Numbered from the stretch's first letter, positions 31,265 to 64,000 are shown. The stretch is DNA of 64,000 nt from a virus (IMGVR_UViG_3300020153_000001:1-64000); one strand, 5' to 3'. Numbers and translations: made by a program. Notes: generated from the letters alone by a model not told the origin.

Positions 31265-31531
31265 CTAGTCCCTACCGAAGAGAGTGCAAACGGCTTCGAT
31301 AAGTTTCGGATCATTATATGCAGAGCTATCCGCAGCGAACTTCTCCATTTCAGCGTTGCTGAGACGTCGAAGAAGTTCGCCAGCTTCTTCGCCGAGTTTG
31401 ATTAGGACTTCGGCTTCCTTCTCGTTTTCCGGAATGATACCAAGTTCCGCAAGCCTACGAAAGAAGGCAGGCTTAGCGTAGTTGTCGTCAATATATTCCA
31501 GAGCTTCGATAATCTTTTCTCTGTCGGGCAT
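31265..31531 (-). CDS. Small helical hypothetical protein
   Basis: 88 aa, AGGAG SD, directly after the MCP; contains EKFAA. Confidence 0.7.
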   Translation of the reverse strand: MPDREKIIEALEYIDDNYAKPAFFRRLAELGIIPENEKEAEVLIKLGEEAGELLRRLSNAEMEKFAADSSAYNDPKLIEAVCTLFGRD

Positions 31532-31561
31532 AGCGTTTTCTCCTGCAACTCGGGCACACGA

Positions 31562-32524
31562 TTACGTTACGTTGAATTTCGCGCGGGCCATAGCATAACC
31601 GTTAACAATGGCCGTGCCGATCTCTTCGTAGCAGAACCAGAGGATATTCCAGGCCTTGGTATCAACGAACATGGTGACGTCTTCCAGGCTATAGGCCTTA
31701 CCAAGACCTCTCGGATCGGCGAACAGGTAGTACTCTTGGTCAGGAACGAGATGTCGTTTAATGGTAACGACCCACTTAATATCCTCGAATTGGTCATAAG
31801 CGTTACCGCCAAACAGAACTTCCTGGCTACGCTGACCACCCAATTCCATGAAGTCCCACTTTCTGATTTCTTTGGCAGTAACGTTATTGACGACAATGGT
31901 TTGAGTCTCGAAGTGGGCCGGGGTGCTGGGCAGAATCTGCAAAGAGCTCACAAAGGTTTCACGGCTAAAGCCGCCGCTATAACCAACATACTGCACAACA
32001 CCAGTCATCGGACTGGCGCCGTTTACCGTGGTGCCGAGCGCACTATTGACGGCGGCAAAGAATCGGGAATCCTCCTGAGCCATTAGGTCCAGCACCAGCT
32101 GGTCAGTAACGACTTGGCGAATATCGTACTGATAGGTTCTCAGCAGGCTCTTATCGCACCACAGAGTCGGACTGAGAACTCTGTTGAAAGTGAGCAAGAA
32201 ACGATCACCGTGGACGAACCAGGCGCTGTTGTTGGTATTGTAACCAACGTTAATGGCACCGGGGCTGTTGGGCTCCTTGAACAGGATCACAGCCGGCACG
32301 TCAGTATTAACTTGCGGGGTCAGCTGGTCGTTGGTGATCGGCAAAAACGGCAGGAACCGACGCTGGACGCCGGTTTCACGAGCCATCAGTCGAACAAAGT
32401 TATCCAAATCCTGTTGGGCTGCCGCTTTTTCGTACGGATCGCCCATCAGTTGGTTAAATAGCGCTTCATTCAACAGTCTATAATCCTTAATGGGATCACC
32501 TGTTTTGACTGCAGGATCTGCCAT
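31562..32524 (-). CDS. Major capsid protein (HK97-like fold)
   Basis: 320 aa, GAGGAG SD, strong codon bias, DIRQ..QEDSRFF pattern; lies downstream of protease, scaffold and decoration genes. Confidence 0.8.
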   Translation of the reverse strand: MADPAVKTGDPIKDYRLLNEALFNQLMGDPYEKAAAQQDLDNFVRLMARETGVQRRFLPFLPITNDQLTPQVNTDVPAVILFKEPNSPGAINVGYNTNNSAWFVHGDRFLLTFNRVLSPTLWCDKSLLRTYQYDIRQVVTDQLVLDLMAQEDSRFFAAVNSALGTTVNGASPMTGVVQYVGYSGGFSRETFVSSLQILPSTPAHFETQTIVVNNVTAKEIRKWDFMELGGQRSQEVLFGGNAYDQFEDIKWVVTIKRHLVPDQEYYLFADPRGLGKAYSLEDVTMFVDTKAWNILWFCYEEIGTAIVNGYAMARAKFNVT

Positions 32525-32582
32525 AGTTTTCGTCTCCTCATATCTTAGAATTACAGTTGCAAGCTCGGTTTTTATCTAGTCA

Positions 32583-33203
32583 TTAAGAAGAGGTCTTCGG
32601 CAAGAAGTAACTCCAGAACGTGAGCACGTTTCTTCGCATAGCGTTCACGCCAACGGGACTAGTCGGATATTGGCCGGGGCCGAGGGCTTGATAGTCATAT
32701 CCCCAGTGCAAAGAAGCAATACCGCAAACCCAGTTGGTATAAAACGCACCGTTCGTAATAAGACCACCTACGTTGTCGCTATCCAGACGGACCGTAAGCG
32801 GTGTATTAGGCGCGTAGGTACCACTGGTGTAGTACTCCGTGGTCTGTAGTTCAAAACCACCAGTCGCCACGAGACCGGTTATCATACCGCCTGGCGAGGC
32901 ATTAACTTGGACAATGTTACCGGCGGCGTTTACGCCTGTATCCGAAACGTCATAGCTCTGGCCGCCTTGCAAGAGGTAAAGAGGCATCGGGTTTCCGGAC
33001 ACGTTGGTCGGAGTAGCCAAAGTGATAGTACCAGCGTTGCCGCCAGAACCGGACACAAAACCAACGCGCCCAGCAGGCCACGAGCTAATGGTCTGCAAAA
33101 GCGCGCTATCGACAGGGGCGACCTTTTGCAGATGAGTCGGCGGATTCCAGCCACGCACGACGTTCAATGCGTGATCGTATGCTTGAACAATCAGTCTAGC
33201 CAT
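32583..33203 (-). CDS. Head decoration/cement protein
   Basis: Gly/Thr-rich beta protein directly upstream of the MCP. Confidence 0.6.
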   Translation of the reverse strand: MARLIVQAYDHALNVVRGWNPPTHLQKVAPVDSALLQTISSWPAGRVGFVSGSGGNAGTITLATPTNVSGNPMPLYLLQGGQSYDVSDTGVNAAGNIVQVNASPGGMITGLVATGGFELQTTEYYTSGTYAPNTPLTVRLDSDNVGGLITNGAFYTNWVCGIASLHWGYDYQALGPGQYPTSPVGVNAMRRNVLTFWSYFLPKTSS

Positions 33204-33234
33204 CGTTATATTCTCCTCTTTAGATTGTTTTCAA

Positions 33235-33612
33235 TTATGACCGAGATAGAATCTTTTGTGCGAACTCTTGTGCTACCGGAAGATCATCTATCCGCGGGAC
33301 ATGGTCTACGGCCACACGCCGAATACTCTGCGTCGAACTTCCAACCGGCTCTCCAATAAACCCGGACGGACGAGCACTGGCCTTTTTGGCCATTCGCTCA
33401 ATAATCTCCAAGCTTCCTTCGTGTGTATTAAGAAGCTTAGCCGCGACTTCCCGTTGGTTCACAGTAATAAACGAGTTTGCAACCAAGGTGTCGACGATTT
33501 CCGGGACGCGTTTGGCCACCTCGGCCCGTTTTTCAAACTGCCGGGCAGCCCTTTTGGAGAGCTCGCTAACGATGAGGCCTAGGTTCTCTGCATATTCTGC
33601 AATTCTTGCCAT
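33235..33612 (-). CDS. Small head-module protein with K-x-A motifs
   Basis: LSKRAA, FEKRAE, AKKAS; GAGGAG SD. Confidence 0.75.
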   Translation of the reverse strand: MARIAEYAENLGLIVSELSKRAARQFEKRAEVAKRVPEIVDTLVANSFITVNQREVAAKLLNTHEGSLEIIERMAKKASARPSGFIGEPVGSSTQSIRRVAVDHVPRIDDLPVAQEFAQKILSRS

Positions 33613-33627
33613 ATTTATCTCTCCTCG

Positions 33628-34809
33628 TTAGTTTCTACTTTTATTATACAAATCCGCTATAAAGTCCTCAACGTGATCGCGGAGGCGCTTAGCGCGAGCA
33701 CGCTTCTCTGCGGGTAGCCGAGAAAGAGGAACGTATTTACCGCTCTTTAAATGCACTTCCGCGGACTTGGCCAGGCGATAACCCGTCCTACCGCCTTTTG
33801 ACGCGAGGTCGGTAAGACTTTCTCCTCTGGCCAGAAGCGCATCTAGAGTGGCCGAAAGGATTTCTTCGTCACTAGCGTTTTTTATTTCCTCCGGAGGAGC
33901 CGCTTCCTGCGCTGGGGCCGGAGAGCCGGCCAGCAATCGTTCCATGATTTCTCCTTTATCTTCGGGCGACTCTTCCGGCGTCTCCTCTTCTTCCTGCCCT
34001 TCCTCAGTAGGCTCTTCCTCCTCTTCTAGCGTTTCAGGACTACCTTGCTCGATAGGTTCACTTCTAGCGAGATCGACTATCGCATCAAGCAGTTTGTCTA
34101 TATCTTCGTTAGAAATAGCGGGCTGTTCTTCTTCGGGGGAAGTAGGAATTTCTGACTCGATCTCGTCTTCTTTACTTCTCCTTTCTTCCTCCTCAGCTTC
34201 AGGCTCTTCTTCCTCGGCCTCTTCTTCCTCGACACTCGCATCTTGGGCCAATTTCACCGAATACAATATGGCACCTACCATATTGGCCCGGCTTCTAGCG
34301 TCTTCGACCACTTTGTCTGCGACAATTCTAGATAGTATTCTCGGCGAAATCTCGCTAAGAAGATATCCACCGTCTTCGGATGCCTCTTTTACGAACTCGG
34401 CGATACTAGATGCATAGAATATAGCTGCGTCGGAAAGTTCGTTTGTGCTTGCTTGTTTTATATGGCTTTGCTTCTCGACGCTGGCAGGCGAGGAAGTAGG
34501 GCTATCTGTCGGCGTATCGGACGGTTCTGGGACGCCCTCGAACCCCGCAGGACCGGCAAGCAAATTCTCGGCGCCTTCAATAGTCTCCAGTTCTTTATCC
34601 TCGTCCGTGTCTTTCTCTTCCTCTTCGTCGTGGCTCTCGACACCGGACGGGATCGTATCCTTATTTTCCTGGATCAGTTCTTCGCCGTGTTCGCCGATCT
34701 CCGCAGGTTGGGTCTTATCGTCCTCGTTGTCGCCGATAGATGCTTGCTTTATTTTTCCCTCGATTATCTGCCGAAGAACGTCAGTCACTTCGCGCAAAGA
34801 TTTGCTCAT
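33628..34809 (-). CDS. Acidic scaffolding-like protein
   Basis: Start MSKSLRE (34809, GAGGAG). Very Glu-rich; lies between protease and MCP; IKQAS x2, VKEAS, VKLAQ, IKNAS. Confidence 0.7.
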   Translation of the reverse strand: MSKSLREVTDVLRQIIEGKIKQASIGDNEDDKTQPAEIGEHGEELIQENKDTIPSGVESHDEEEEKDTDEDKELETIEGAENLLAGPAGFEGVPEPSDTPTDSPTSSPASVEKQSHIKQASTNELSDAAIFYASSIAEFVKEASEDGGYLLSEISPRILSRIVADKVVEDARSRANMVGAILYSVKLAQDASVEEEEAEEEEPEAEEEERRSKEDEIESEIPTSPEEEQPAISNEDIDKLLDAIVDLARSEPIEQGSPETLEEEEEPTEEGQEEEETPEESPEDKGEIMERLLAGSPAPAQEAAPPEEIKNASDEEILSATLDALLARGESLTDLASKGGRTGYRLAKSAEVHLKSGKYVPLSRLPAEKRARAKRLRDHVEDFIADLYNKSRN

Positions 34810-34872
34810 ATTTTTCTCTCCTCGTTTAAGCTTCAAAGGTAAATCAGACAACAAACTACTACCTTAATATCT

Positions 34873-34902
34873 ATGATAGCATTTATAAAGCCGGGCGCTC
34901 AA
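34873..34902 (-). promoter_or_regulatory. Sigma70-like promoter TTGAGC-N18-TATCAT (TGCTATCAT)
   Basis: Lies between palindrome copy 8 and the scaffold gene. Confidence 0.5.
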
Positions 34903-34904
34903 TA

Positions 34905-34930
34905 CAATTTTGACTCCGGAGTCAAAATTG
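34905..34930. repeat. Palindrome copy 8 (core 34908-34927, extended to 26 bp); contains the protease TGA stop
   Basis: CAATTTTGACTCCGGAGTCAAAATTG. Confidence 0.95.
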
Positions 34931-36319
34931 CATGGAAACGGCCGCGGCAGCCATTTTCTTGAAATCGGGACTATCTATGTGGTTTGACAACACCGCTAAC
35001 TGATACATTGCATACTCGCACGCTAGCACCGGGCCTAGGGCAGCGTCTGCTTTATCGGCCAGCCTAACGTAGCCTAGACTGCTGGCACTCTTAACAGAAA
35101 GGTCAAAAGGTTTAATAGAGTAGCACAAGAGCGAGCTATCTAGCGATCCGGCGCATTTTGTCATTTCGCGTTGGACGTACGGATTACTTTCCAAGACGGA
35201 GACAACGTCAGCTTGTCGTGACAGCTTGGTAAATACACCCGGCAGATGATCTGTAAAGTCAGGAGCGCCTAACAAATCAGCCCAAACTTTAGGGGGTAGT
35301 AATATACCCAATCGGCCGGCCGCCGATAGCTGCTCGTATTTGTCGGCATCTTTTATAAAAACGCGATTTCCGCTACTCGCTACGCGGGAGATGTCGGCTA
35401 GTCTCCTTGCATAACTTTCGTCAAATGCCGCTGTTTTCTCAACTTCAGCTAACGTGACTAACGCTTTATACTGCTTCTTAACGGCTGACGACGGAAGAGC
35501 GTCAATATACCAGACAGGAAGCGCTAGTTTTATCCGCTCGGCAAGCTCTGCCCCAGAGATAACACGGCCAGAAGCTTCTGCCTGCTTAGTAAGCTCTCCA
35601 TATACGGCAATCGAATACGCTATTCTGTCGGCGGGACGAAGAACATGGGAGATATCGAACCACTCGCAGATGGGGTTTACGGCACATAGGGTATGGCCGT
35701 CGTCAAACGTTTTGCCTATGTTGTTCTTTAGCCCGCCGTACTTAACACATCGATCAGGCCCGCAGTACTCAAGCCTATTCCTGGCTTTGTTGCCGCAACC
35801 AGAACATACGTCGTACGGCACCCTGGTCGCCATGCTTACGGGTATATCCTCCCCTTTTGACAGAAGCTCTATTTCATCGTCGGCGACCAGTCCCTTATTA
35901 CGCTCTGCGGCTTCTTTAGTGCCGTTCAGGTATACTAAGAGCTCTATTCTTCCAGCAGGCTTATTGTAATATGACGCTTTTACAATGCCATAGCTACGTC
36001 TAGGGTCTTTATTGATGTGAGACCTGTAAAAGTAAGCAAACTTAGTGAATGTGGGATGGTCTCGTTCACAAGTCTCTGAAGGAAAATAGTCGCCGTTTTT
36101 ATTTGGACCGAAGTGTTCTCCGTCTCCAAGCGCTATAACATGGATAGGGACTTCGCCCTTCTTAGGCGGCGACTTTTGTAGCACATCTACAAAATACGCA
36201 GCCGCACGCTTTAGCAGCTGCTTCTTATCCTCCCCAACCAGCCCACGAGAAGCCACTTTAATAGCATATGTGACTGGCTCGTCAAAGGACTGGCTATTTG
36301 GAGGAACAACCTTGAGCAT
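34922..36319 (-). CDS. Prohead (capsid maturation) protease with Zn-finger insert and C-terminal extension
   Basis: PNKNGDYF, HINKDP, VSMATRVPYDVCSGCG and FDISHVLRPAD motifs; upstream of scaffold and MCP. Confidence 0.8.
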   Translation of the reverse strand: MLKVVPPNSQSFDEPVTYAIKVASRGLVGEDKKQLLKRAAAYFVDVLQKSPPKKGEVPIHVIALGDGEHFGPNKNGDYFPSETCERDHPTFTKFAYFYRSHINKDPRRSYGIVKASYYNKPAGRIELLVYLNGTKEAAERNKGLVADDEIELLSKGEDIPVSMATRVPYDVCSGCGNKARNRLEYCGPDRCVKYGGLKNNIGKTFDDGHTLCAVNPICEWFDISHVLRPADRIAYSIAVYGELTKQAEASGRVISGAELAERIKLALPVWYIDALPSSAVKKQYKALVTLAEVEKTAAFDESYARRLADISRVASSGNRVFIKDADKYEQLSAAGRLGILLPPKVWADLLGAPDFTDHLPGVFTKLSRQADVVSVLESNPYVQREMTKCAGSLDSSLLCYSIKPFDLSVKSASSLGYVRLADKADAALGPVLACEYAMYQLAVLSNHIDSPDFKKMAAAAVSMQF

Positions 36320-36473
36320 TTGTGGCTGCTAAAAGCTGACAGTTTGTTAAAGTAATATAGAACTACTCTAATTTTTGACTGCAATTAATAAGCGTGTAAC
36401 AAAACATAACACGCTAACATACAAGTTAGCACATAATCTGAGCGGAGCAGTTATCTACCGCGACATCAATTAA

Positions 36474-37526
36474 TTAATACTCTCTTCTCAAGTCGAAGAC
36501 GTCAGCCACAGCTCTGCCTAATCCATAGCCGGCAAGACCGCCAACAAGACCACGTGCGCCGCTGCGGCCTAAAGCTTTCTTATTCTTAACTGCGCTTTGC
36601 GCGAGTCCTTTCAAAGCCGCCAAACCACCTCCGGCACGCTGGACGCCGGCTTGATATAGACCCTTAGCGGCTCCGGGCACACGCTTCACAAGCGCGCCTA
36701 GCTGCTTAGCGTAGTCTTTAGCGAGTTCGGGCGAGCGCTTCACAAGCGCGCCTAGCTGCTTAGCGTAGTCTTTAGCGATTTCGGGCGATCGCTTCGCAAG
36801 CGCAGCTAAGTGTCTAGCGTAGTCCTTCGCGATTTCGGGCGAGCGCTTCGCAAAATCGCCTAAGCGCTTAATATATTCCTTTGCGGCTTCGGGCGCGTGT
36901 TTCGCAAGTTCACCTATGTGCCTCGCATATTCCTTTGCAATTTCGGGCGAACGCTTCGCAATGTCCCCTAAGACCTTAATATATTGCTTTGCGATTCCAG
37001 GCGTACGCATCAAAAAGTCGGGCACACCCATAGCTTTAACCAGATCTTTCGCTTTCCCAACCGCTCCGGGAAATGCTCCAATACCTGCGCCTGTAGCCGC
37101 AGAAAGCCCGATGAGCCCTTTTCCAAATGGCGTATAACCGCTCTCACCTTTCTCCAACGATCTGAGTGCCTCCTCGATTTGCTTAATAGTATCAGGCGAT
37201 AGGGCCCCGGCGGCGCCGCCTCCTGCGCCCGCTGCACTTAGCGCACCTAATGCGCCTCCACCTCCTCCCCCGCCTCCCCCGGCCTTACCGCCGAATATAG
37301 ATGTAATACCGCTGGCTCCCAGGCCGGCTCCCGCAACGGCCCCCAAAACGGTCAGCAGTGCCGATGTTTTCTTATCAAACCCCAACAGTTGGCTTAAAAT
37401 GAGCGCTGTCATTCCGAGCCCTGCGCCCGGTATAACAATATCCCATACATCAGCAGCCTCTTTCACATAATCATCGTCAAGGGGAATCCTAGAAGCTATA
37501 TTTGCGACGTGATAAATATCATGCAT
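36474..37526 (-). CDS. Membrane-segment protein with Gly linker and 18-aa amphipathic repeats
   Basis: VKEAA followed by hydrophobic Gly-rich helices; repeats AKxYxxxLGxLAKRSP. Confidence 0.8.
   Translation of the reverse strand: MHDIYHVANIASRIPLDDDYVKEAADVWDIVIPGAGLGMTALILSQLLGFDKKTSALLTVLGAVAGAGLGASGITSIFGGKAGGGGGGGGGALGALSAAGAGGGAAGALSPDTIKQIEEALRSLEKGESGYTPFGKGLIGLSAATGAGIGAFPGAVGKAKDLVKAMGVPDFLMRTPGIAKQYIKVLGDIAKRSPEIAKEYARHIGELAKHAPEAAKEYIKRLGDFAKRSPEIAKDYARHLAALAKRSPEIAKDYAKQLGALVKRSPELAKDYAKQLGALVKRVPGAAKGLYQAGVQRAGGGLAALKGLAQSAVKNKKALGRSGARGLVGGLAGYGLGRAVADVFDLRREY
36675..36998 (-). repeat. Six 54-bp (18-aa) coding tandem repeats
   Basis: An identical 43-nt stretch recurs at 36682 and 36736. 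Confidence 0.9.
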
Positions 37527-37579
37527 TATTTTGTCTCCTCTGCCATCAAAGATCGGTCTTTATGCCGTCAACAAGTAAT

Positions 37580-37588
37580 ATTATACCA
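37580..37588 (-). promoter_or_regulatory. Extended -10 element TGGTATAAT
   Basis: 54 nt upstream of the ATG at 37526. Confidence 0.55.
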
Positions 37589-37605
37589 CAAACAACGTTA
37601 AAAGA

Positions 37606-38469
37606 CTATTTCTCTCGTGGTGACGCAAACAAATGCCCTAACAAGCTACCTAAAAACCCCCACCCAGCCCAGCGGGCACCGCGACGTAAAACATCTTTAC
37701 CCGTCAGCCTGAGCCGGCCAATCGAGAATCTAGGAAGAACACCCGCGCTCCTACCTATGTTATTAAGAGAGCGTAGCTGGTTTTCTAGCGTGCGAAGCCG
37801 GGCCTGAGTCTGTCGGTTTAACGGACCCCGTTGACCTAACCGAATCTGTCGGATCTCATTATTGATCACTTCTATAGCCCTAGTAAGGTCGCTATGTCTT
37901 GGCTTGATAGGGATGTCCCCGATTTCTCTTCTTAGTTCTTTTCTTATTTTGTCAAAGTCGGGTATTTCAGGGTTAACCCATCTAGCCCACATGGGTTTTG
38001 TAGCAGCCGAACCAGCTCCGGCTAGTCCACTAAGTCCGGCTGTGGTAGCAGGATCAAACCACGATACAAGGTCGGCCAGAGAACCGATAGCACCTGACGT
38101 CCGACTATCCGGCTCAGGTATCACTCTTGTTACAAACCTCTCTAAACCGCTAACCATACCCTCTAAACGACCGGCGCCACCACCACCGCTAGTATCTTTC
38201 TCTACGTCTAACTTTACTTCTTTTCCCATACTATATAACCCGACGCCAACACCAATTGCAGCTCCAAGGGCGCCTAAGGCCGCGCTCAGCCCAGAAAAGA
38301 TTCCATGCTTTTTATCAAACAAAACGCCAAGCAGAACACCTACTGCGCCGAGACCCAAAGCTGGCGGTAACGTAGCAGTCAAGATCTCCCTTGCTTTTTC
38401 GACATCGAACGCCGCCTTGACATGGTTTTTGTAGGCGCGTATTTCGTTCAGTACGCTGTTGTTGCGCAT
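37606..38469 (-). CDS. Gly-rich membrane-segment protein
   Basis: VKAAF followed by two hydrophobic segments; hydrophobic C-terminus. Confidence 0.75.
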   Translation of the reverse strand: MRNNSVLNEIRAYKNHVKAAFDVEKAREILTATLPPALGLGAVGVLLGVLFDKKHGIFSGLSAALGALGAAIGVGVGLYSMGKEVKLDVEKDTSGGGGAGRLEGMVSGLERFVTRVIPEPDSRTSGAIGSLADLVSWFDPATTAGLSGLAGAGSAATKPMWARWVNPEIPDFDKIRKELRREIGDIPIKPRHSDLTRAIEVINNEIRQIRLGQRGPLNRQTQARLRTLENQLRSLNNIGRSAGVLPRFSIGRLRLTGKDVLRRGARWAGWGFLGSLLGHLFASPREK

Positions 38470-38500
38470 AGCAAGGCCCTGTTCGTTACCTCGTTATTAT

Positions 38501-38764
38501 TCACTTAGATACGTACTTCTTACGCGTCGAACTCCACCGATAGCGCAACGGGGCAGTATAGCCGGTACCAGGCTTTTTGCCCTTAGCACGAGCAAGTGCT
38601 ATGCGAGCCTTGACTTCGGCGGGCATTTCTTCGCCGTATTCGCGTTTAAGGGATCTATATATCTCTTTTGCCTTTTCCGGATAGTTCTTCTCCGTAAAAC
38701 TCTTGGACTTTCTTCCCGATTTCACAAGCTCTGCAAGCTTCTGCAGCGGATATAGGCAAAACAT
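38501..38764 (-). CDS. Small basic protein
   Basis: 87 aa, Lys/Arg-rich, QKLAE motif. Confidence 0.65.
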   Translation of the reverse strand: MFCLYPLQKLAELVKSGRKSKSFTEKNYPEKAKEIYRSLKREYGEEMPAEVKARIALARAKGKKPGTGYTAPLRYRWSSTRKKYVSK

Positions 38765-38785
38765 AAGTAAAGCTCTCCTTTACGG

Positions 38786-40132
38786 CTAGACCAATGATTC
38801 TTCTTTGCCTCTTTCTGGTTCAGCTAAATTAAACATACCGGACGACATTCCAGTAGCGATCCGATCTAGCTCTCTGTTGAGAGATACAAGCGAGTTCGTA
38901 TGGAATGTGTCTAGAACGCCGCCAGATTGCAACGCGATACGCAGATACATACGGATGAGGTTAGGTTGCTGCATGGCTCTGGGAGCCAGTCGGCTTAGCG
39001 CGTTATATACCTTCACAATTTCATCGGAAGGATACTTGCTTATAACAGGGTCATTTGCCATCAAGTAAATAAGATAGCTTTTGACCTTAAGCGACGCAGC
39101 TTCGATATTCATTGAAACGTCTTTCGGCTTTACTACTGACGGCTGTGTCTTTCCGAAAATTTCGCCAACAGACTGACCGAAGCTAGAGATAGAGCCCACA
39201 TCAGGGAACATGGAAGACTTGGCCTCTTTCCTAAAGTCGAGCTCTGGGAAAATGGTTTGCCACCGCTCGGGCTCAAGCTCTGGGAAGATGGTTCCGTAGA
39301 TAGGCCTTCTCAGGTCGGCAATATCAAGTTTCTTCTTCGGCGGAGATGCGAAATTGGCAAGCTTTTCTGCCTTAACGGCCTCTAAATACTCGTTGCAGCA
39401 GTCAACAGCCTGTTTAATAAGCGAATATGGAGGTCGTTTGGCGTCGAATATCGGGTCGTTCGAGTAAATAGGAGGATGTTTTAGATTGGCCACGTCAAGC
39501 GCCAGCTTGACGATGGTCTCTCCCTCTTTACCAAATACAGCTACAGCGTTTTGCTTGACAACGTCGGGGTGGACAGAACCGTGACAAGAAAAATACTGTG
39601 CAAGTGCGTCAATAGCATTAGCAAAGCGCCGTTCTGATGCTAGCTTAGCAATTCCGGCTTCTTTCCTTGCTTGGTCAGCCACAAACGGCGTTACGTCTTT
39701 TCTATTAGGCTTTGGTCTGTCTAACGAAGCTAGTTTAATGCTAGCAGACCCTGTTTTAATGGTTGTGGGTCTTATAACGCTACTAACCGGAAGCTTCCAG
39801 TCAGAAGATACCGCTGCAGACTCGTTATAGGAAGGTTGACTAGCAGTCTTTATTGATGTATTTCGGCTAAATACGGCTTTTACGACGTCTTCTGCGTTTA
39901 TAACGCGGGGTACTTCGGCGCGCTTGTCTAAATCTTCTAGTTGAGATAGAGAAGCGGCCGTATTATACGCGCGGACGACCATTCTTATTTGGTCTTTTGT
40001 AAGGTCATAAACCCTTGCGATTTTGACCGCGGCGGTCTGTGGCTCCTCCCCCATTTCTACTAGGTCAATAAGCTCGTTGGCCGCCTTCTTGATCTTCTCT
40101 TTTGTAGCCGGCGTTATGCGCTTAGCTGCCAT
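38786..40132 (-). CDS. Hypothetical (putative inner-head) protein with multiple K-x-A motifs
   Basis: IKKAA, IKTAS, IKLAS, AKLAS, EKLAN, RKEAK; SD supplied by palindrome copy 9. Confidence 0.8.
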   Translation of the reverse strand: MAAKRITPATKEKIKKAANELIDLVEMGEEPQTAAVKIARVYDLTKDQIRMVVRAYNTAASLSQLEDLDKRAEVPRVINAEDVVKAVFSRNTSIKTASQPSYNESAAVSSDWKLPVSSVIRPTTIKTGSASIKLASLDRPKPNRKDVTPFVADQARKEAGIAKLASERRFANAIDALAQYFSCHGSVHPDVVKQNAVAVFGKEGETIVKLALDVANLKHPPIYSNDPIFDAKRPPYSLIKQAVDCCNEYLEAVKAEKLANFASPPKKKLDIADLRRPIYGTIFPELEPERWQTIFPELDFRKEAKSSMFPDVGSISSFGQSVGEIFGKTQPSVVKPKDVSMNIEAASLKVKSYLIYLMANDPVISKYPSDEIVKVYNALSRLAPRAMQQPNLIRMYLRIALQSGGVLDTFHTNSLVSLNRELDRIATGMSSGMFNLAEPERGKEESLV

Positions 40133-40904: not shown

Positions 40905-41308
40905 TACATGATAGCTCCGCCAACGTGAATTACAAGCGACAAAGCAAACTTAGAGTTAGCCGGTATGTTGCTGCCAGCGGTTATCTTCAGAAACAATGTT
41001 CCGCCGGCAGCATCCCGACGGCTGACAACCGAATAAGCCGCCTCTCCGATATATTGAACAGGGGCAGAGGTTTGCGTGGGTATAACTTCGCAAATATGAT
41101 TATACGCCTGGTCCGTGCTAGAAGGTTGGGCGTCGTATAGATCCACTGCCGTTATTGTTGGCACTCCATCTGACTCTACCGCCAGCGAGAAGCGCTTGAT
41201 CAGCCCTTCGGCGGGCACGGGGATGGAAAATACCACTGAAGTAGCCTCTTGCGCTACAACTAGCGGATTTCCTGTAACAGTCGAACGTTTAATTTCGTGT
41301 ATTTTCAT
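40904..41308 (-). CDS. Small beta-sandwich (structural-like) protein
   Basis: 134 aa with alternating beta pattern. Confidence 0.65.
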   Translation of the reverse strand: MKIHEIKRSTVTGNPLVVAQEATSVVFSIPVPAEGLIKRFSLAVESDGVPTITAVDLYDAQPSSTDQAYNHICEVIPTQTSAPVQYIGEAAYSVVSRRDAAGGTLFLKITAGSNIPANSKFALSLVIHVGGAIM

Positions 41309-41314
41309 ATCTTG

Positions 41315-43555
41315 TTATCCTAACTCTCTAGCCGAACCAAATTCGCCAGTACCTTCATCGATATGCCGTGTCGTTGCAGTCTGCTGCTGCTCTTTTAGCA
41401 TTACGGCTAGCTTGCCTAATTGTTTGAATTGAGCAGAAAGCATATTCTTAATTCGTTCGACGTCGTATTGTCCGTAACGCTTCTCGAAATCGTCGCTATG
41501 CCAATAGAACGTAAATAGAATACGACCTAGCGCGTCGACGGCCTGTAATACGTCAGGTAAGTGCTTGTCTATGATTTCTCTGTCGTCTGCGATAGATAGA
41601 AGCGAAGACAAAGTAGTTGTGTCGAATACTTCTTTTTGGCCCGTTTGGGCTGCTTCTTGTACAGCCCTTACAAGTTCTGGATTTAACGGCTCATTAGCCC
41701 GACGTCGAACGGGCATAATCCCTTTCACGGAAGATACTGTCATCAGGTATCTTAGACCTGGCTTTGTAGGCACTTGGCTCCCAAAGAGCATATCAGGAAC
41801 GGTAGGGGGTTCTATCATTCCGGGGGCTGGTGTTAGCCTTGGATCAAGTGATATCTGCTCGGCTTGTTTCTCGATAATCCATCTCGTTCCTTGCCGCGTC
41901 GACTTATTTAGAACATCTTCTGCAGACTTTTCGCTAAGCCCATACACAATGAGCAGATCGCTTATTGCTTGCTTACGATCTTTATCTTCGCCGTTTATCG
42001 CGTAATGATCTTTGTTGAACTTGATAACAACGAGCTCGTCGAAATCTCCTTTTGCCACCCTCTTTTGGAGTATATCCGGTCTGCCAGTAAAGTTTAGTTT
42101 CTTGACCTTCTTGTAAGTTATTGGAACAGCTCTCGCGTCTGGCGGTACGAATATGCTATGAGCGCCGAACACAATATTACCGGTCGGCGTTTCTTTGATC
42201 TCAACAGGTTTGTCTTCCGCGCTGGCTCGCAAACCGATACTATGGCCGTCTCGTCCAGCATGTCCAGATACAACAACACGGATAACACTATTTTCTTTAT
42301 CTATAATAATGAATTCTTCATCGCCGAACGTCTTGTTAGTTATCTCTCGAATTATCCCTCTAGGCGTAATGCTGCGTTTTTCCAAGGCTTTATGGAACTT
42401 TTCATCTGGCTCTTTGCTATCGACCTGTACGAGTAGATCGTGCGGATGATAAACATATTTTTCGTCTTTATCGCCGAGAAATTCGACGTATATCCTGGTC
42501 GGTAGATCGCTATAGTACTTATTGGGATACGGTTCGGCAAAATCTACGGATCGAGATGTCGAGCAAAGCCGAGGCGGTACTCTGAACGGTATAACAAGCG
42601 CTCGATGGAACTTGCCATCTTCCCCGCACAGTACTTTGTATATGCCGGGCTCGCTCACGCCGGACTGAATCTGCTCTCGTAGCGTTATCTCAACGTCATC
42701 CGCCTTGGCATATTTCGAGAATGCTTTACGCTTGTCTATTATAAAATAGCCATTCTTTTTAAGCTTAATTTTATCTTCGACAGACAGCCTAGGATCATTA
42801 ATGTCATCTGTCGTTAGTACTTCAACTGCGGCAGTCTTTACTTGCTGACGTTTCGTAGGCTGATATAGTATCGATTGGCCGGCTTTGACAGACCCTTTGG
42901 CTATCTTTAGAAGCCTGTCCACGCCGAAACTCTTATATAGCTTAATAGCGGGCCAGGCCTCGCTAAGCTTTATAAATGCAGCAGCTATTTTTGGACTATT
43001 AGCAATAGCTCGCTCTAGGTTAACGCCTTTCAGTCTTGGCGGATTGTACCTAGCATACGCAATATCTGGCAAATAATTCGTTAACCAATCGGCACTAGCT
43101 GCCTTGGTCGGCAGAAAACGCAGAAAGTCCATGGTGGGCTGAATCGGCCGGATATTCTCCGACACAAGCGTGCCGAGCGGCATATGATGATGCATCATAA
43201 GATGGTCAATCCACTCCGGTATCTTCGGCACGAATATATTACCCTCTGCCAACCACAACAGCTCGTTGCCGACTAGCTCGCCTTTATTGAAAAAGAACGG
43301 CGCAAGAGCAAGCTTACCGCCGATATCAAGCCCCATTACACCAATGGCTTTTCTTTCGTCTTCGCTTTTCTCGATAACCTGGAACCCCAGCATCCGCTCT
43401 GACAGCTGAGGGAACTGATCTATCATCACGGCCATGACGAGATTCGAGAACGCCTTCTCAAACTCTGTCGAACTAGAAGTATCGTCGGCCTTTTTGATGC
43501 CGCGAAGACTGGCAAGTTTGCTTAAAACGGCCTTGCTGGCGAGATAGTTTTGCAT
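41315..43555 (-). CDS. Large hypothetical protein with K-x-A motifs
   Basis: 746 aa; IKKAD, TKAAS, VKTAA, EKQAE. Confidence 0.85.
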   Translation of the reverse strand: MQNYLASKAVLSKLASLRGIKKADDTSSSTEFEKAFSNLVMAVMIDQFPQLSERMLGFQVIEKSEDERKAIGVMGLDIGGKLALAPFFFNKGELVGNELLWLAEGNIFVPKIPEWIDHLMMHHHMPLGTLVSENIRPIQPTMDFLRFLPTKAASADWLTNYLPDIAYARYNPPRLKGVNLERAIANSPKIAAAFIKLSEAWPAIKLYKSFGVDRLLKIAKGSVKAGQSILYQPTKRQQVKTAAVEVLTTDDINDPRLSVEDKIKLKKNGYFIIDKRKAFSKYAKADDVEITLREQIQSGVSEPGIYKVLCGEDGKFHRALVIPFRVPPRLCSTSRSVDFAEPYPNKYYSDLPTRIYVEFLGDKDEKYVYHPHDLLVQVDSKEPDEKFHKALEKRSITPRGIIREITNKTFGDEEFIIIDKENSVIRVVVSGHAGRDGHSIGLRASAEDKPVEIKETPTGNIVFGAHSIFVPPDARAVPITYKKVKKLNFTGRPDILQKRVAKGDFDELVVIKFNKDHYAINGEDKDRKQAISDLLIVYGLSEKSAEDVLNKSTRQGTRWIIEKQAEQISLDPRLTPAPGMIEPPTVPDMLFGSQVPTKPGLRYLMTVSSVKGIMPVRRRANEPLNPELVRAVQEAAQTGQKEVFDTTTLSSLLSIADDREIIDKHLPDVLQAVDALGRILFTFYWHSDDFEKRYGQYDVERIKNMLSAQFKQLGKLAVMLKEQQQTATTRHIDEGTGEFGSARELG

Positions 43556-57816: not shown

Positions 57817-57832
57817 CTTTCTAGGTCCTAAG

Positions 57833-60800
57833 TTATTTCTCGATTATCTTTATTGGCTGGTCTATAGCAATTTCTCCTCTAGCAAACGCGGCAAGCGCGT
57901 CTTTTTTCGTTTTAAATATTTTTACTGGTTTACGGCTATCGACGCGACTAGCATACCATAGGCCGATGAGATAGTCTTGTTGGGGGGTATAAACAGGCTC
58001 TGCAAATATGGCTGCTTTGAATAGATTCTTCGACGGTAGCAATTTATCGTAGGCTTCCTTGACGGCGTCGTCGGATGCGGGTACATGGAATTGCATCGTA
58101 TCGCCGTCGAAGTCAGCGCCAAAGGCCTGTGTAATAAGAGGGCTTATCTCTATGGTTTTACCCGGTATAAGAACGGGTCGAAACGCCATAATTCCGTACT
58201 TGTGAAGCACGGGCGCGCGGTTTACTACAACAGGCCGCTCTTGGATAACACGTTCCAAAGACTGCTTAGCATAGGGATGGCGCTCATTAACAAGCATATT
58301 CGCCACTAGAAACGGCGAAGCACGTAACGCTGGCGGAACGTTACGAAGCACGCTATCAGGAAGGCCGCGATGCATTAGGTCGCGAATAATAAACGGCTTA
58401 TACGCGACCCAAGCCGCCTCCTCGGGAATACCTATCTCGTCAATATCTAAAGAACTGTTCGGCGTAATGACTGCCCTACCAGCCAGCGTGGCACTAATAC
58501 CAAGCATTTTTCTCTGCATTATGCTGGCTTTCGGGCTGGAACCAACCACGGTAGCCAGCAAACCCTTAATACCCTGCTTCTTCAGGGCGTAGCTATGTGG
58601 ATCGTCTAGGCCTGTAAGCCCGTAAAAGATGGACATGAGCGATCTTCGCTCTTCCCGTAGATCGCTAATATCCGAGGCCAGTTCTTTATAAGCGCCGATG
58701 AAGTCGATGAGCTCTTTATAAAGATAGTTCGCATCATTAACGACAAGCGTGCCGTCTTTAATCATCGAGATAGGTCGAAAGATGGGCGGAATGACTGGAA
58801 CTTTGGTCCAAAATAGCTCGGACGGGTGGATACTAAAGCGTTTGAGGCCTTCAAGGTAGTTTAGCTTTTTGATAAGCGACGACCGTTTCGATGGCGTAGC
58901 AGTTTGGAGTTCTTCCCTGGTACGCGTTATTTCTCTATCGACGTCATAGTTTTTAAATAGTTCATAAAGCGCCATCGGACCGGATATAGGCCCTTTTGAT
59001 TGACGATACCGTTCAGGTATGGGAAGCTCGCCAGCAAATATGCTAATGAGGTCCTTCTCGCTTACGCCAATCAATCTACCAAGCAGTTCCACCATGATTG
59101 GGTTTGGAACCGGCTCTGGTAGCTTGATGGCGCTCCACCGCGTGCCAGCTAGACCTCCGGTAAGACCGTCGTCAAACAGCCCACCCTCTACCGTTCGGAA
59201 ACCGTCGCTATAGACACGAACTGTCTCGGAGTTCTGAACATATCGGTTACCCGCTAGTTGATCTATATCTTTATCTCGAAGCGCAAGAAGCCGTATACCA
59301 GAACGTTCTTGGATGGGGTTAATCCCTGCCCCTCTAAGCAAGGCGACAAATTTGTGCCATATATGCGGGATCTTGGGCTGCGGTAGGCTGTGGCCAGTCA
59401 TAAATTGTCGCCATGCCTCATCGTTCGCTTGTCCGCGGATAAGTGCGGCATCGGTTATTGTGTTGTACGCGCCGTGCGCCAACAGCGCGTTAAGCTCAAG
59501 GATCCCCAACCGTTTGGCTTTTCCCGATTCACCAACAGTGGGGATATCTTCTGCGCTTGCAGCAATAGCCTCGTCTACGGCCTGAAGCTTATCTTCTGCA
59601 ATATGGCACAGGCGCAGAATATATCCATAGCCTGTAAGCGCGCGTATTTTTCTACCCGTAACGGGATCTGTGAGCACTTCTGTATCGCTAACACCATGCT
59701 TCTTTAGCACGTCAGAAACGTATTGATGCAGCCTGTCGGCGTGTTCAAAATCCTTTACATAGATTGGCTTTCCTATCTTCTTAGCAACCTTCCCTAGAAG
59801 TGCTTCATATATTTGACCAATATTAGCCCGCGAAATAATAAACGGCGACGCGATGATATCGACAGGCTTGCCATCTTCGCCTATGGGCATCTGGCTATCG
59901 GGTTTAATGATAACGACGCCTTTATTTCCATATAGCCCCGCAATCTTATCTCCTTGTTGGGTCTCGAATATCGACTTTACGATAGCAACAATGCCCTCTT
60001 TTGTCTTACCAGCCGCTATTACTATCCCAGGCGCGTCATAGTCCCACGTAACGCTGTCATCAACAAACATCTTGTGGGAAGCTCTAGCGGTGGTGATAGG
60101 AAGCATCTTGGCACTAAGAATAATCGGCTCGCCCTTACGGAGAACCGTTCCTGGCCGCGCCACGCCCTCGTTAGTATACTTCTCTAAGTCCTCAGCGGTC
60201 ATTTTGCCAGGAAATAGCGACACGTAAGCCTGTTTTCCGCTAGGCTCTGCTGTTTGGTGCTGATAGACAAAAAGATTCTCGGCAGACAGTTTGCGCGCAA
60301 ATGACTGTGAGATAACGAAAGCGTCTTCGTATGTATCGCCGGTAGCCATATAGGCAATCTTTGCGTTTGTTCCCACCGCAAGATTGCCGTTTATATCGGT
60401 AAAATTGCTATAAGCCAAAAGCTGGCCAGGCTTTACGACATCGCCAGGCTTTACAAGCGGCTCGTTATATAAAGCCGTCTGCCTGGCATAAGGCGTATTG
60501 TTGTGCAACCAGATCTTCTTTGTGCTTCGGCTGTCAGCGTCATAAAGCTCGATAAAATCGGGAGTTACTTTGCGTACGACCCCCTTATATGGGCTATAAA
60601 CGGCACCAGCGTATTTTCCAAATATTGATACAAACGGTCTTCCACGGCTATCAACCGATTGCACTAAAGGCGCTTCTCTGTTTATGATGGGCAATGCTTG
60701 CGTAATAAATCGGCTTCCCATCGCCACGCGCTGCGGGAAGCAGGCGCTTTTCATGGGGATAAGTGACGCAAGCGGACCAAAGATATGCGTTGCATCCTTG

Positions 60801-62191
60801 ATGTAATGCGTTATTTTTTCCCTTGGTACGAAGAGCTCGTAGCCTTTTGATATTGCACGAACGTAACGACGACCGCTTTCTAGCTCGCCAGGGAACGCTA
60901 TCGTAACGTCCTCTACTTGATCCGATCTTAGCCAAGTCTCCTTATTTGTCTTTGCGTCGATGACTGGAATATAAAGAAGGCCGTCCGATCCTCGTCTTGC
61001 CGAGATTGTCATCCTTGTTTCTACCCCTACTTTGAGGGATTCTGGGGTAGTAACAGGGTCGATAAATCCTAGCTGCGTAGCATGGACGTCCCTGGCAGAA
61101 GATGGGATGGCCTCTACGGCGCCTATACCACCCTCCCCCATTCGTGTAAGACGGAAGGCGTGGTCAAGGATTTCGACGGGGTTGATCTCGGCTGGCGCCA
61201 TCACAAGCCCAGAAGCGCGAATTACATGATCAACGATAGGCTGGGCTGGTCTTGGCGGTATGATCTCTTTTTTGGGATTACGCATGGCCTTCCAGAGGAT
61301 ATTTCTTAAAATGAGGCGCATCTTTGCAGGGACGTTTTCGGCAAAGATATCCTCTGGACCAAGGAACTGCTGGTTGGCCAAAGAGTCTCTATCGTCTTCT
61401 CTGGCCTTGCCTTGGAGAAGCTGGATCATCTTGGCTGTAGCTGCTAGCGCCGCGCGTTTGTCGACATAGTTCTGCATTAGCCCTAAGTTGCGGCGCATCA
61501 CGTCCTGCGCTACAGGAACTTGCAAGAACTCGCGCGCAAGATCTACATCCGTAGAGCCAAACATTCTTTTGGCAAAACGCCGCGCATCTTCTACTTTCTC
61601 TGTTACATTGCGTGCCAGAAGATCAGCACCCCATGCTTGCCTTAGCTCTTCATCAGTTACTCCGATAGCTCTTAGAATAGGATAAAGCCGAAACTTCGCC
61701 TGTCCTGCTTGTATGTAGAATATGCCTGTCGTAGGGTCGAGTACGTAACGATGGGTTTTGCCGGCTGGGAGGTTGATGAAAGCCTCCGGCTCCCCTGTCT
61801 GACGGAACCGGACGTAGACGCCAGGTTTTAGCCGTTGTTGGTTCGTAATGGAATACTCAACGCCGCCTATAACAAAGACGCCTCGGTCGGTAAGATAGGG
61901 AACTTTGGCAAGAAGTGTGCGTTTCTCGATAACGCCTGATGGCGTTGTTATTCGTATCGTTCCATAAAGATCCCGCGCCAGTGTGCTGTTTGTGATAATG
62001 GCGCGCTTGTGATTAATAGGGCTTAAGATTTCTTCTTCTGGTTCCTTGTCTTTATATTCCACGTCTTTTAGCTCGATAGTCCAGTTACCCTGGCTATAAG
62101 AAGGCGTGGAAATAAAAGAATTACGGACAGCGTCGAAGATACGCTGCCGTATCGTCTTAACATCGGCAATATCGATAAGCTCGCCAGTCAT
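57833..62191 (-). CDS. rpoBC: RNA polymerase beta subunit fused to the N-terminal half of beta'
   Basis: Beta motifs: RDVHATQLG..TPES, GDKIAGLYGNKG, SRANIGQIYE, RLGILELNAL. Junction near 59305. Beta' motifs: PVIPPIFRP, GRAVI, NRAPVLH, GADFDGD (58100-58120). Confidence 0.95.
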   Translation of the reverse strand: MTGELIDIADVKTIRQRIFDAVRNSFISTPSYSQGNWTIELKDVEYKDKEPEEEILSPINHKRAIITNSTLARDLYGTIRITTPSGVIEKRTLLAKVPYLTDRGVFVIGGVEYSITNQQRLKPGVYVRFRQTGEPEAFINLPAGKTHRYVLDPTTGIFYIQAGQAKFRLYPILRAIGVTDEELRQAWGADLLARNVTEKVEDARRFAKRMFGSTDVDLAREFLQVPVAQDVMRRNLGLMQNYVDKRAALAATAKMIQLLQGKAREDDRDSLANQQFLGPEDIFAENVPAKMRLILRNILWKAMRNPKKEIIPPRPAQPIVDHVIRASGLVMAPAEINPVEILDHAFRLTRMGEGGIGAVEAIPSSARDVHATQLGFIDPVTTPESLKVGVETRMTISARRGSDGLLYIPVIDAKTNKETWLRSDQVEDVTIAFPGELESGRRYVRAISKGYELFVPREKITHYIKDATHIFGPLASLIPMKSACFPQRVAMGSRFITQALPIINREAPLVQSVDSRGRPFVSIFGKYAGAVYSPYKGVVRKVTPDFIELYDADSRSTKKIWLHNNTPYARQTALYNEPLVKPGDVVKPGQLLAYSNFTDINGNLAVGTNAKIAYMATGDTYEDAFVISQSFARKLSAENLFVYQHQTAEPSGKQAYVSLFPGKMTAEDLEKYTNEGVARPGTVLRKGEPIILSAKMLPITTARASHKMFVDDSVTWDYDAPGIVIAAGKTKEGIVAIVKSIFETQQGDKIAGLYGNKGVVIIKPDSQMPIGEDGKPVDIIASPFIISRANIGQIYEALLGKVAKKIGKPIYVKDFEHADRLHQYVSDVLKKHGVSDTEVLTDPVTGRKIRALTGYGYILRLCHIAEDKLQAVDEAIAASAEDIPTVGESGKAKRLGILELNALLAHGAYNTITDAALIRGQANDEAWRQFMTGHSLPQPKIPHIWHKFVALLRGAGINPIQERSGIRLLALRDKDIDQLAGNRYVQNSETVRVYSDGFRTVEGGLFDDGLTGGLAGTRWSAIKLPEPVPNPIMVELLGRLIGVSEKDLISIFAGELPIPERYRQSKGPISGPMALYELFKNYDVDREITRTREELQTATPSKRSSLIKKLNYLEGLKRFSIHPSELFWTKVPVIPPIFRPISMIKDGTLVVNDANYLYKELIDFIGAYKELASDISDLREERRSLMSIFYGLTGLDDPHSYALKKQGIKGLLATVVGSSPKASIMQRKMLGISATLAGRAVITPNSSLDIDEIGIPEEAAWVAYKPFIIRDLMHRGLPDSVLRNVPPALRASPFLVANMLVNERHPYAKQSLERVIQERPVVVNRAPVLHKYGIMAFRPVLIPGKTIEISPLITQAFGADFDGDTMQFHVPASDDAVKEAYDKLLPSKNLFKAAIFAEPVYTPQQDYLIGLWYASRVDSRKPVKIFKTKKDALAAFARGEIAIDQPIKIIEK

Positions 62192-62194
62192 TGT

Positions 62195-63172: not shown

Positions 63173-63184
63173 GAAACCGCTCTT

Positions 63185-63204
63185 TTTTGACTCCGGAGTC
63201 AAAA
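63185..63204. repeat. Palindrome copy 13 (perfect)
   Basis: 2 nt after the TAA of 63207-63608. Confidence 0.95.
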
Positions 63205-63206
63205 TT

Positions 63207-63608
63207 TTACGTAAAATGGGATGCATCTTTCGTAAGCTCCGAATAAAGTTGTGCCCATTCAAGATAAATGTGATAGTTTTTCCGTTCGTCGTCCCAGTGC
63301 CGCTCTACAAAGATCTGTCGGAACCAACCATTTGCAATCCTGTCTTGTACCCACTGGTACGCTTTACGATCATCTTCATTAGACAAATCAAAAAGATCGT
63401 GCCGCCAATCAGCGACAAGCGTCGTATACTCGTAAATCTCGTTCAGGTCAAGCTTAGGAAGTACGTTTGAAGACCTTAGACGTAGCGGTAGACCGAACGG
63501 CATGAACTGCCAGTAAAGATAGCCGTTATGCCGTTCGTCTTGCTCACCGGCGTACTTATAGATTGCCGCAGGACGCTGACCTGTAAACGTCTGCTGTAGA
63601 TTGGACAT
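63207..63608 (-). CDS. Hypothetical protein
   Basis: 133 aa, aromatic-rich, YKYAG motif. Confidence 0.7.
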   Translation of the reverse strand: MSNLQQTFTGQRPAAIYKYAGEQDERHNGYLYWQFMPFGLPLRLRSSNVLPKLDLNEIYEYTTLVADWRHDLFDLSNEDDRKAYQWVQDRIANGWFRQIFVERHWDDERKNYHIYLEWAQLYSELTKDASHFT

Positions 63609-63639
63609 TGAAACATACTTTTTTATTTATTACCTGGCA

Positions 63640-64000
63640 TCAAGCTACCTCTTTTTTAGCCTTTTCCTCTTCGGCTTTTTGGGCCTCTGCATCGAATTCG
63701 TCTGCTAGTTCTTCGCAGACAGTCTTTATGGCTTCATCGCGCGCCCATTCGTCGGACGATCTAGCATGGCCTCTAGTCACCTGCTTATAGGCGCCAAATA
63801 GGCTATGCACCGTAACAAAACCAGCACCAAAGAGGGTAGGTAGAACCAACCAGGAGAGTGCTTTCTCTAATACCGAACCAGCAGTACCGGTGAGAAAGGA
63901 CAGGCCTTTGGTGGCTATTGTCCCAAATATGGATCCTCCTCCACCAGCGGCTGCTTTCTTTACGCGTTTCTTGGCTGCTGGTTTTCGATTTTGTTTGCTG
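63640..64000 (-). CDS. 5'-truncated membrane-segment protein
   Basis: Frame is open to the window edge: ..KRVKKAAAGGGGSIFGTIATKGLSFLTG..WLVLPTLFGAGF. Confidence 0.7.
   Translation of the reverse strand, partial: SKQNRKPAAKKRVKKAAAGGGGSIFGTIATKGLSFLTGTAGSVLEKALSWLVLPTLFGAGFVTVHSLFGAYKQVTRGHARSSDEWARDEAIKTVCEELADEFDAEAQKAEEEKAKKEVA

Follow-up and report, generated by a model that had tools for sequence, protein, structure and literature searches.

A Lys-x-Ala motif concentrated in the head-assembly proteins of an uncultured phage as the probable recognition and cleavage signal of its prohead protease

Why does one short peptide pattern, a lysine and an alanine separated by a single residue (K-x-A), recur in the head proteins of a phage whose head genes are almost devoid of annotation? 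The question is raised by the first 64 kb (hereafter, the window) of the 135,539-bp genome of an uncultured phage, IMGVR_UViG_3300020153_000001, where the minus strand carries every long open reading frame (ORF). A preliminary description of this DNA had listed peptides of the form [IVLFT]-K-x-A from many proteins encoded between 31 and 64 kb, and had proposed that the maturation protease of the phage cleaves after K-x-A and that the motif would identify the packaged proteome. Each of the listed peptides was found in its gene; for example, SKQAQ comprises residues 7–11 of the protein encoded at 51707, and VKKAA (63640) lies in an ORF that runs past the window end. The analysis presented here narrows the signal to a head-assembly module and suggests that K-x-A, with the profile [L/F/Y]-[E/V/I/T]-K-x-A-[A/S], is probably the signal at which the phage's own prohead protease, encoded at 34922–36319, recognizes and cleaves its substrates, the cleavage being deduced from the data that follow.

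Expected motif counts were obtained by shuffling within each protein, so that composition was kept. Between 31.26 and 64 kb, [IVLFT]K.A was observed 42 times versus 18.6 expected, a number reached in none of 300 shuffles. Four proteins (33628–34854, 34922–36319, 38786–40132, and 41315–43555) contain 24 copies versus 4.6 expected, and for the stricter pattern [IV]K.A[SA], the same four, that is, the scaffold-like protein, the protease, and the 38786 and 41315 proteins (designated here by the first coordinate of the gene), contain 10 copies versus 0.32 expected. The other 27 proteins of the 31–64 kb region have 18 copies versus 14.2 expected, which is not significant (15% of the shuffles were as high), and the lone copies at 50905, 51707, 56740, 57833, 62195, and 63207 are indistinguishable from chance. 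The genes at 1–19.4 kb contain 5 copies versus 7.9 expected, so that the scarcity described for the accessory genes at 4–19 kb corresponds to a low count at background level but not to a significant depletion. The proposed excess of the 31–64 kb region over the 0–19 kb region exists overall, but the enrichment belongs to the head-assembly module at 31.3–43.6 kb, not to the whole region, and the recurrence across 31–64 kb holds only for this module. The idea that the motif identifies the packaged proteome does not hold for the genes at 44–64 kb, RNA polymerase subunits included, which are not above chance.

A pattern derived from the protein families, [EVIT]K.A[AS], was counted across the whole genome (150 ORFs). 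The head module (31265–43555) contains 16 copies versus 1.2 expected (P = 1.6e-13), and the rest of the genome contains 9 versus 6.5 expected, with five of these nine in one protein beyond the window. Among the 13 head-module ORFs, 5 have an extended site in their first 60 residues, compared with 2 of the 137 ORFs elsewhere (7 versus 1.7 expected; this pattern was defined post hoc). The window by itself is already significant without the relatives. From the sequences, the motif predicts about ten substrates at 31.3–43.6 kb plus one remote gene. The residue class [IVLFT] before the lysine captured a genuine signal but was too narrow, glutamate being the most common residue at this position; because the class excluded Glu, the sites of the major capsid protein (MCP; YEKAAA) and of the 33235 and 31265 proteins had been missed.

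The enzyme that would read such a signal is encoded within the module, and its relevant features are the following.

34922..36319, minus strand: predicted prohead maturation protease, 465 residues, gp21/assemblin fold with a helical C-terminal extension
35621-36280, minus strand: N-terminal domain of the protease, residues 14–233, predicted gp21/assemblin fold
35825..35839, minus strand: VSMAT with Ser162, invariant in 31 homologs, candidate nucleophile
36140-36142, 36017-36019, and 35693-35695, minus strand: H60, H101, and H209, candidate His partners from conservation
35576..35590, minus strand: TKQAE, residues 244–248, resembling a release site (R-site), straight after the domain; K.A[SAGE] column in 61 of 65 homologs
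35081..35095, minus strand: VKSAS, residues 409–413, resembling a maturation site (M-site), about 55 residues from the C-terminus; [EVT]K.A[SGA] in most homologs

The 465-residue protein matched no family in a Pfam scan at E<=0.01, its sole PHROG match was phrog_2774 ('unknown function', E 2e-5), and a profile search against PDB sequences returned nothing. An AlphaFold model built on 31 homologs has a predicted local distance difference test (pLDDT) score of about 80–95 over residues 11–220. In a comparison with VIA-align, T4 gp21 (5jbl_A) ranked first, with Z 10.4, a root-mean-square deviation of 3.4, and 142 of 165 residues aligned, followed by the proteases of varicella-zoster virus (VZV, Z 6.8) and human cytomegalovirus (HCMV, Z 5.0), well above unrelated entries. 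Foldseek against the PDB also gave gp21 as the top match, at E 0.08 only, and the BFVD database yielded 40 matches at E<=1e-3, many of them annotated as prohead protease, with gp19 of phage G among them. The fold thus bears out the proposed prohead protease, and the model identifies the protein as a fold-level relative of clan SH (MEROPS S77, S78, S80, S21), not as a member of a described sequence family. The VSMAT string was likewise found where it had been noticed. In the 31 homologs, Ser162 and His101 are invariant and conservation of His60 and His209 reaches at least 90%; these are candidate catalytic residues. The K-x-A columns in the C-terminal part of the protease are filled in 47 of 65 and 44 of 65 homologs. 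Residues 225–241, 256–261, and 412–414 have pLDDT values below 50, and both the TKQAE and the VKSAS site lie in lower-confidence segments. The same 31 homologs share four invariant cysteines (C172, C175, C186, C191; CSGC...C....C) in an insertion at 35747-35806 (residues 172–191), which may form a zinc-binding knuckle and has no counterpart in T4 gp21.

For the head module, a megablast search against 50,697 phage records produced zero nucleotide matches, and annotation by Pfam and PHROG was nearly nil, comprising the MCP (phrog_2522) and the weak match of the 465-residue protein. Homologs of the latter number more than 565; they are unannotated, measure about 485 residues, and lie on contigs of up to 212 kb. 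About 160 IMG/VR contigs encode a homolog, and 80 of these loci were taken with 10-kb flanks and sorted into ortholog groups by BLAST and position. Identity across these related loci is 20–47%. Among cultured phages, tblastn showed the protease domain to be 39–41% identical to gp222 of the Salmonella phage Arash and to proteins of the Vibrio phages D69, D148, and D181. In the 80 loci, Arash, and D69, the gene order is retained: the 38786 protein, two Gly-rich proteins, the protease, the scaffold, a 125-residue protein, a 206-residue protein, and the MCP.

When every three-residue gapped pattern was scanned without bias in the head proteins of the 80 loci, EK.A, K.AA, K.AS, VK.A, and IK.A ranked highest. 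The position profile is [L/F]-[E/V/T/I]-K-x-A-[A/S]-[A/D/E], with Glu most frequent before Lys, and the true core is K-x-A: this arrangement is enriched 2.66-fold, compared with 0.66- to 1.32-fold for other K/A spacings, 0.91-fold for the reversed A-x-K, and 0.86-fold for R-x-A. In six head proteins of the phage, K.A occurs 49 times versus 16.9 expected (2.91-fold). The T4 motif [LI].E occurs in the same six proteins 32 times versus 31.2 (1.02-fold), and the phiKZ motif [SAG].E 43 times versus 47.3 (0.91-fold), that is, neither is enriched, in agreement with the proposal that the specificity differs from both the T4 rule (L/I-x-E) and the phiKZ rule (S/A/G-x-E). As a positive control, [LI].E was enriched 2.07-fold in the known gp21 substrates of T4 (P = 7e-6) and 1.19-fold in non-substrates; this signal is of the same kind and size as that of K.A in the present phage. 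Codon usage for Lys and Ala at the sites equals the background (for Lys, 31 AAG and 27 AAA, compared with 116 and 102 elsewhere in the same genes), and therefore it is the peptide that is under selection. A DNA-level repeat as the cause was ruled out by these synonymous codons.

About 56–76% of the sites fall in conserved alignment columns of related sequences. By ortholog group across the 80 loci, K.A[SAG] is enriched 6.2-fold in the protease, 4.5-fold in the 41315 protein, 3.8-fold in the scaffold, and 5.1-fold in the 38786 protein, and in the small positional groups, 7.9-fold in the protein that follows the scaffold gene and 6.8-fold in that following the MCP gene. The tail-side groups, the MCP body, and the groups of 32583, 40122, and 48559 (an RNA polymerase fragment) showed no enrichment in these loci. 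Of the 15 invariant columns of the 38786 family (27% mean identity), four are K37, A39, K70, and A72; in the scaffold family (31% mean identity), K201 and A203 are 2 of the 10 invariant columns. The first 60 residues contain K-x-A in 87–100% of the members of head groups, versus 17–49% expected, and in 0–22% of the members of non-head groups, versus 12–27% expected. For the 41315 homologs, the value is 97% versus 28% expected, and for the Gly/Ala-rich group that precedes the protease, 87% versus 37%. The claim that N-terminal sites precede hydrophobic helices is accordingly sustained for the 36474 and 37606 proteins, but those at 50905, 51707, and 62195 are at chance level.

The same features recur in the cultured relatives. 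Arash has seven sites in gp220, six in gp223, five in gp225, and four in gp224, and the scaffold-like protein of D69 has 10 versus 0.9 expected. The MCPs of both phages have K-E-A-G near residue 27, and N-terminal sites are also present in Arash gp221 and in the D69 counterparts of the 36474 protein. The Arash head proteins are virion components by mass spectrometry (PMC10585845). The actinophages Pupper and Cali, with a more distant protease, show little K-x-A enrichment, and therefore the K-x-A code is specific to this clade.

The other motif-bearing proteins of the head module are the following.

33628..34854, minus strand: acidic scaffold-like protein; IKQAS at 34738-34752 and 34447-34461, VKEAS at 34378-34392, VKLAQ at 34243-34257, IKNAS at 33871-33885
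38786..40132, minus strand: 448-residue motif-rich protein; IKKAA at 40079-40093, IKTAS at 39839-39853, IKLAS at 39725-39739; invariant K37-x-A39 and K70-x-A72
41315..43555, minus strand: 746-residue virion protein, homolog of Arash gp218; SKLAS at 43508-43522, IKKAD at 43484-43498, TKAAS at 43094-43108, VKTAA at 42827-42841, EKSAE at 41918-41932, EKQAE at 41858-41872
33235..33612, minus strand: 125-residue protein after the scaffold gene; SKRAA, EKRAE, KKAS
31265..31531, minus strand: 88-residue protein after the MCP gene; EKEAE, EKFAA
31562..32524, minus strand: MCP, 320 residues, phrog_2522 major head protein; N-terminal YEKAAAQ, residues 31–37, at 32414-32434
36474..37526, minus strand: 350-residue Gly/Ala-rich hydrophobic protein; YVKEAA at residues 20–25, VKEAA at 37452-37466
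37606..38469, minus strand: 287-residue Gly/Ala-rich hydrophobic protein; HVKAAF at residues 16–21

The EKFAA column of the 31265 protein is common to 46 of 55 orthologs, and 98% of the MCP homologs have K.A at residues 25–42, versus 17% expected, with the consensus [ML][QE]K.A[IVLA]D. The scaffold ORF opens with a TTG at 34854, but translation probably starts at Met16 (34809, MSKSLRE), the equivalent of which is the first residue in the relatives. In the C-terminal half of the 36474 protein, about five tandem units of some 20 residues each (similar to KRSPEIAKDYA.xLG) are preceded by a run of about 10 Gly and by Gly/Ala-rich hydrophobic stretches. The closest relative (L001:8396-9853) has a single gene of 485 residues in place of 37606-38469 and 36474-37526. 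The proteins encoded at 50905-51678 (TKLAL) and 63640-64000 (VKKAA) resemble the 36474 and 37606 proteins in having a K-x-A leader followed by Gly/Ala-rich hydrophobic segments, with sites at chance level.

The 41315 protein matched Arash gp218 in hhalign (probability 97%, E 3.5e-11). Searches of its profile against PDB sequences and by tblastn against phages found nothing, and its AlphaFold model is poor (pLDDT 59), with only generic helical matches below Z 6 in a fold search; it is a protein without a recognizable fold or family. Arash gp218 is abundant in virions, its spectra being roughly as numerous as those of the MCP; judged by this homology, the 41315 protein appears to be an abundant head or internal protein. 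The label of portal was dropped as unsupported for it: hhalign to the Pupper portal gave a probability of 0.4%, and the homology is to Arash gp218 instead. The Arash portal is gp204, which has its homolog at 113.0-115.0 kb of the present genome (about 113031-114953), where the motif is not enriched.

Two genes upstream of this portal homolog, on the minus strand, a 387-residue DUF6582 protein is encoded (genome 115954-117117; L085:2955-4118). It contains five strict sites versus 0.19 expected (P = 1.8e-6), and K29-x-A31 and K145-x-A147 are invariant in its family. As the only motif-dense protein outside the head module, 72 kb away, it represents at least one candidate substrate that, by its sequence, the motif locates far from this module.

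The proteins that bear the motif are of the kinds that prohead proteases cut. Besides the scaffold, the protease, and internal head proteins, these are the MCP and small hydrophobic proteins, the latter two with the site near the N-terminus, which supports a role of K-x-A in processing. Inside the assembled prohead, the protease would free its own catalytic domain at the site after residue 245 and detach its C-terminal anchoring tail at the site near residue 410. It would cut several times in each of four proteins, the scaffold and those encoded at 38786, 33235, and 31265, and would trim short N-terminal leaders off the MCP, the 41315 protein, the Gly/Ala-rich small proteins, and the DUF6582 protein. 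For the scissile bond, we lean towards Ala|Ala/Ser, by analogy with assemblin; a cut at Lys|x, as in HK97, is a less probable choice.

Several observations weigh against proteolysis at K-x-A. What was obtained directly are the fold, the motif statistics, the conservation, and the predicted interface, from which we infer the cutting itself and the bond that is cut. Because the homologs share ancestry, the 80 loci are less independent than their counts suggest. In the MCP, the N-terminal arm that holds the site is conserved throughout, and conservation of the site need not reflect cutting. The coincidence of sites with low-confidence segments is a trend only (6 of 12 sites in the 41315 protein, P = 0.3). 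Moreover, K37 and K70 of the 38786 protein are in confidently folded regions, and the conserved K37 and K135 of the protease are inside the confident fold, not in linkers; therefore, not every copy can be an accessible cut site. The published virion data for Arash, in paper and supplement, consist of protein-level tables only (PMC10585845).

The main rival explanation, which we consider unlikely, is that K-x-A is a docking or assembly motif, a short linear peptide through which internal head proteins attach to the protease, to the core of the scaffold, or to the inside of the capsid, serving in co-assembly or as a capsid-targeting signal, with proteolysis occurring elsewhere or not at all. The location of conserved motifs within folded, interface-forming parts of the 38786 protein and the protease speaks for it, and so does a complex model. 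When residues 1–240 of the protease and 1–140 of the 38786 protein were modeled together with our own alignments, the score was 0.84, compared with 0.01 for the best of three controls; of 80 solved complexes, 58 attained this mark, as did 2 of 110 mismatched pairs, which are rough counts here since our own alignments were supplied. Contact agreement between runs was at least 43% and the pLDDT of the partner at least 65. On the protease, the predicted interface (62, 67–71, 158, 203–210) flanks H60, S162, and H209; on the 38786 protein, it comprises the conserved helix at residues 47–58, the first residues, and the segment that follows K70-x-A72. The closest contacts involve this helix and the first residues, and no K-x-A strand occupies the active site, another point that counts against cutting. 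The model thus supports binding of the 38786 protein to the protease, not its cleavage; this predicted docking also counts in favor of the preferred reading. The N-terminal placement of many sites would also suit a targeting leader. On the other hand, the many copies per scaffold-like protein, the sites that bracket the protease domain, the small residues at and after the Ala, and the T4-like statistical signature all fit cleavage better; moreover, T4 has its targeting leader and cut site in one place, which makes the two readings compatible.

Far less probable is the absence of any shared function, with K-x-A as a by-product of helical composition rich in Lys, Ala, and Glu combined with ordinary family conservation. 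The head proteins are indeed rich in these residues, EK.AA resembles helix-forming sequence, and the share of sites in conserved columns given above would be expected under this explanation. An artefact of helix formation or composition was ruled out by the spacing, orientation, and Arg controls, given that only K-x-A in this spacing and orientation is enriched and Arg is no substitute for Lys. Furthermore, the motif is found in at least eight unrelated families of the module and not in neighboring families of similar composition, K and A are invariant where the flanks vary (38786 and scaffold families), and the scaffold of T4, which is also helical and charged, shows K.A enrichment of only 1.8-fold versus 1.3-fold in non-substrates. 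The ortholog-group and spacing controls have largely refuted this explanation already. That the conserved Lys serves covalent chemistry, for instance cross-linking through an isopeptide bond or modification of the Lys, and that Ala is needed for steric reasons, would agree with the strictness of Lys without substitution by Arg and with the Lys cross-links of HK97-type capsids, but can be set aside as highly improbable, the motif being most concentrated in scaffold-like and internal proteins, which as a rule exit the head or are degraded, and all but missing from the MCP body, and no candidate modifying enzyme having been seen in the module.

Proteolytic processing at K-x-A, the reading we prefer, can be compared with four known systems. 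In T4, gp21 (5JBL) has gp22, gp67, gp68, gp23, gp24, and internal proteins as its substrates; the fold is the same (Z 10.4), the protease gene likewise lies beside those of scaffold and MCP, and a short motif is repeated in scaffold and protease and placed after N-terminal leaders, with a bare-motif signal of two- to threefold. In contrast, T4 cuts after Glu in L/I-x-E, whereas here the conserved residues are Lys and Ala; the present protease has 465 residues, with a C-terminal extension of about 230 residues and the four-Cys insertion, compared with 212 residues in T4 gp21, and no sequence similarity between the two is detectable. The proteases of phiKZ (gp175) and SPN3US (gp245) trim N-terminal propeptides that contain several motif copies (PMC5694885, PMC10052503). 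Like the present phage, these are large, encode a multisubunit RNA polymerase, and have numerous internal proteins in the head; their rule differs, being S/A/G-x-E (A-x-E with Ser at P1' in SPN3US), a pattern at background here.

The herpesvirus pUL26/UL80a sites end in Ala followed by Ser or Thr (YLQA-T, VQA-S), and some of these viruses have internal sites (PMC4498786). Assemblin shares the fold with the present protease, as given above for VZV and HCMV. The herpesvirus precursor has the order protease domain, R-site, scaffold part, M-site, and tail, and the phage protease resembles it in having a C-terminal extension, one conserved candidate site straight after the domain, another near the C-terminus, and conserved internal ones; in the phage motif, Ala/Ser likewise comes after the Ala, and an aromatic or aliphatic residue precedes it. 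The motif differs in the obligatory Lys two positions before Ala, which has no equivalent in the herpesvirus consensus, and cleavage after Ala is a prediction for the phage. Furthermore, the scaffold is encoded by a separate downstream gene in the phage, not as a nested in-frame product; none is implied by the sequence, the two C-termini not having been formally compared. We tentatively propose, as a possibility short of even odds, that this large, mostly uncultured phage clade has an endopeptidase similar to assemblin, with cleavage at Ala|Ala/Ser and a mandatory Lys at P3, and with a precursor that contains release, maturation, and internal sites; it would be the phage equivalent of the protease and scaffold of herpesviruses.

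The HK97 prohead protease gp4, of the same superfamily, cuts gp5 after Lys103. Such a cut after Lys fits the alternative [L/F]-x-K|x-A, but HK97 removes one long delta domain from its MCP and has no separate scaffold, and we know of no repeated K-x-A code described for it. The short cut-site codes of T4 and phiKZ-like prohead proteases are, to our knowledge, well known and always have Glu at P1. No description of a K-x-A prohead specificity was found in the literature, in a search that was incomplete, so that absence is not proven.

Beside the head module, 48559-50412 and 57833-62191 match PHROGs of RNA polymerase beta/beta' subunits and indicate a split multisubunit RNA polymerase, the proteins of which show no K-x-A enrichment in the window. 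This mirrors Arash, whose virion preparations contain RNA polymerase subunits as some of their most abundant proteins.

If true, the Lys-x-Ala code would extend this enzyme fold to a new specificity. The motif is common to at least 160 IMG/VR contigs of 140–230 kb and to the cultured phages Arash, which infects Salmonella Typhimurium, and Vibrio D69, D148, and D181; because it is shared with cultured, tractable phages, the claim is directly testable. The boundaries of mature proteins would become predictable in a clade in which almost every head protein is unannotated, as would the proteins that are processed or loaded into the capsid, and phage and herpesvirus capsid maturation would be linked more closely in mechanism. 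Should the assemblin-like reading be true, processed capsid cargo, including the products of distant genes such as that of the DUF6582 protein, would be readable from sequence in hundreds of metagenomic phages.

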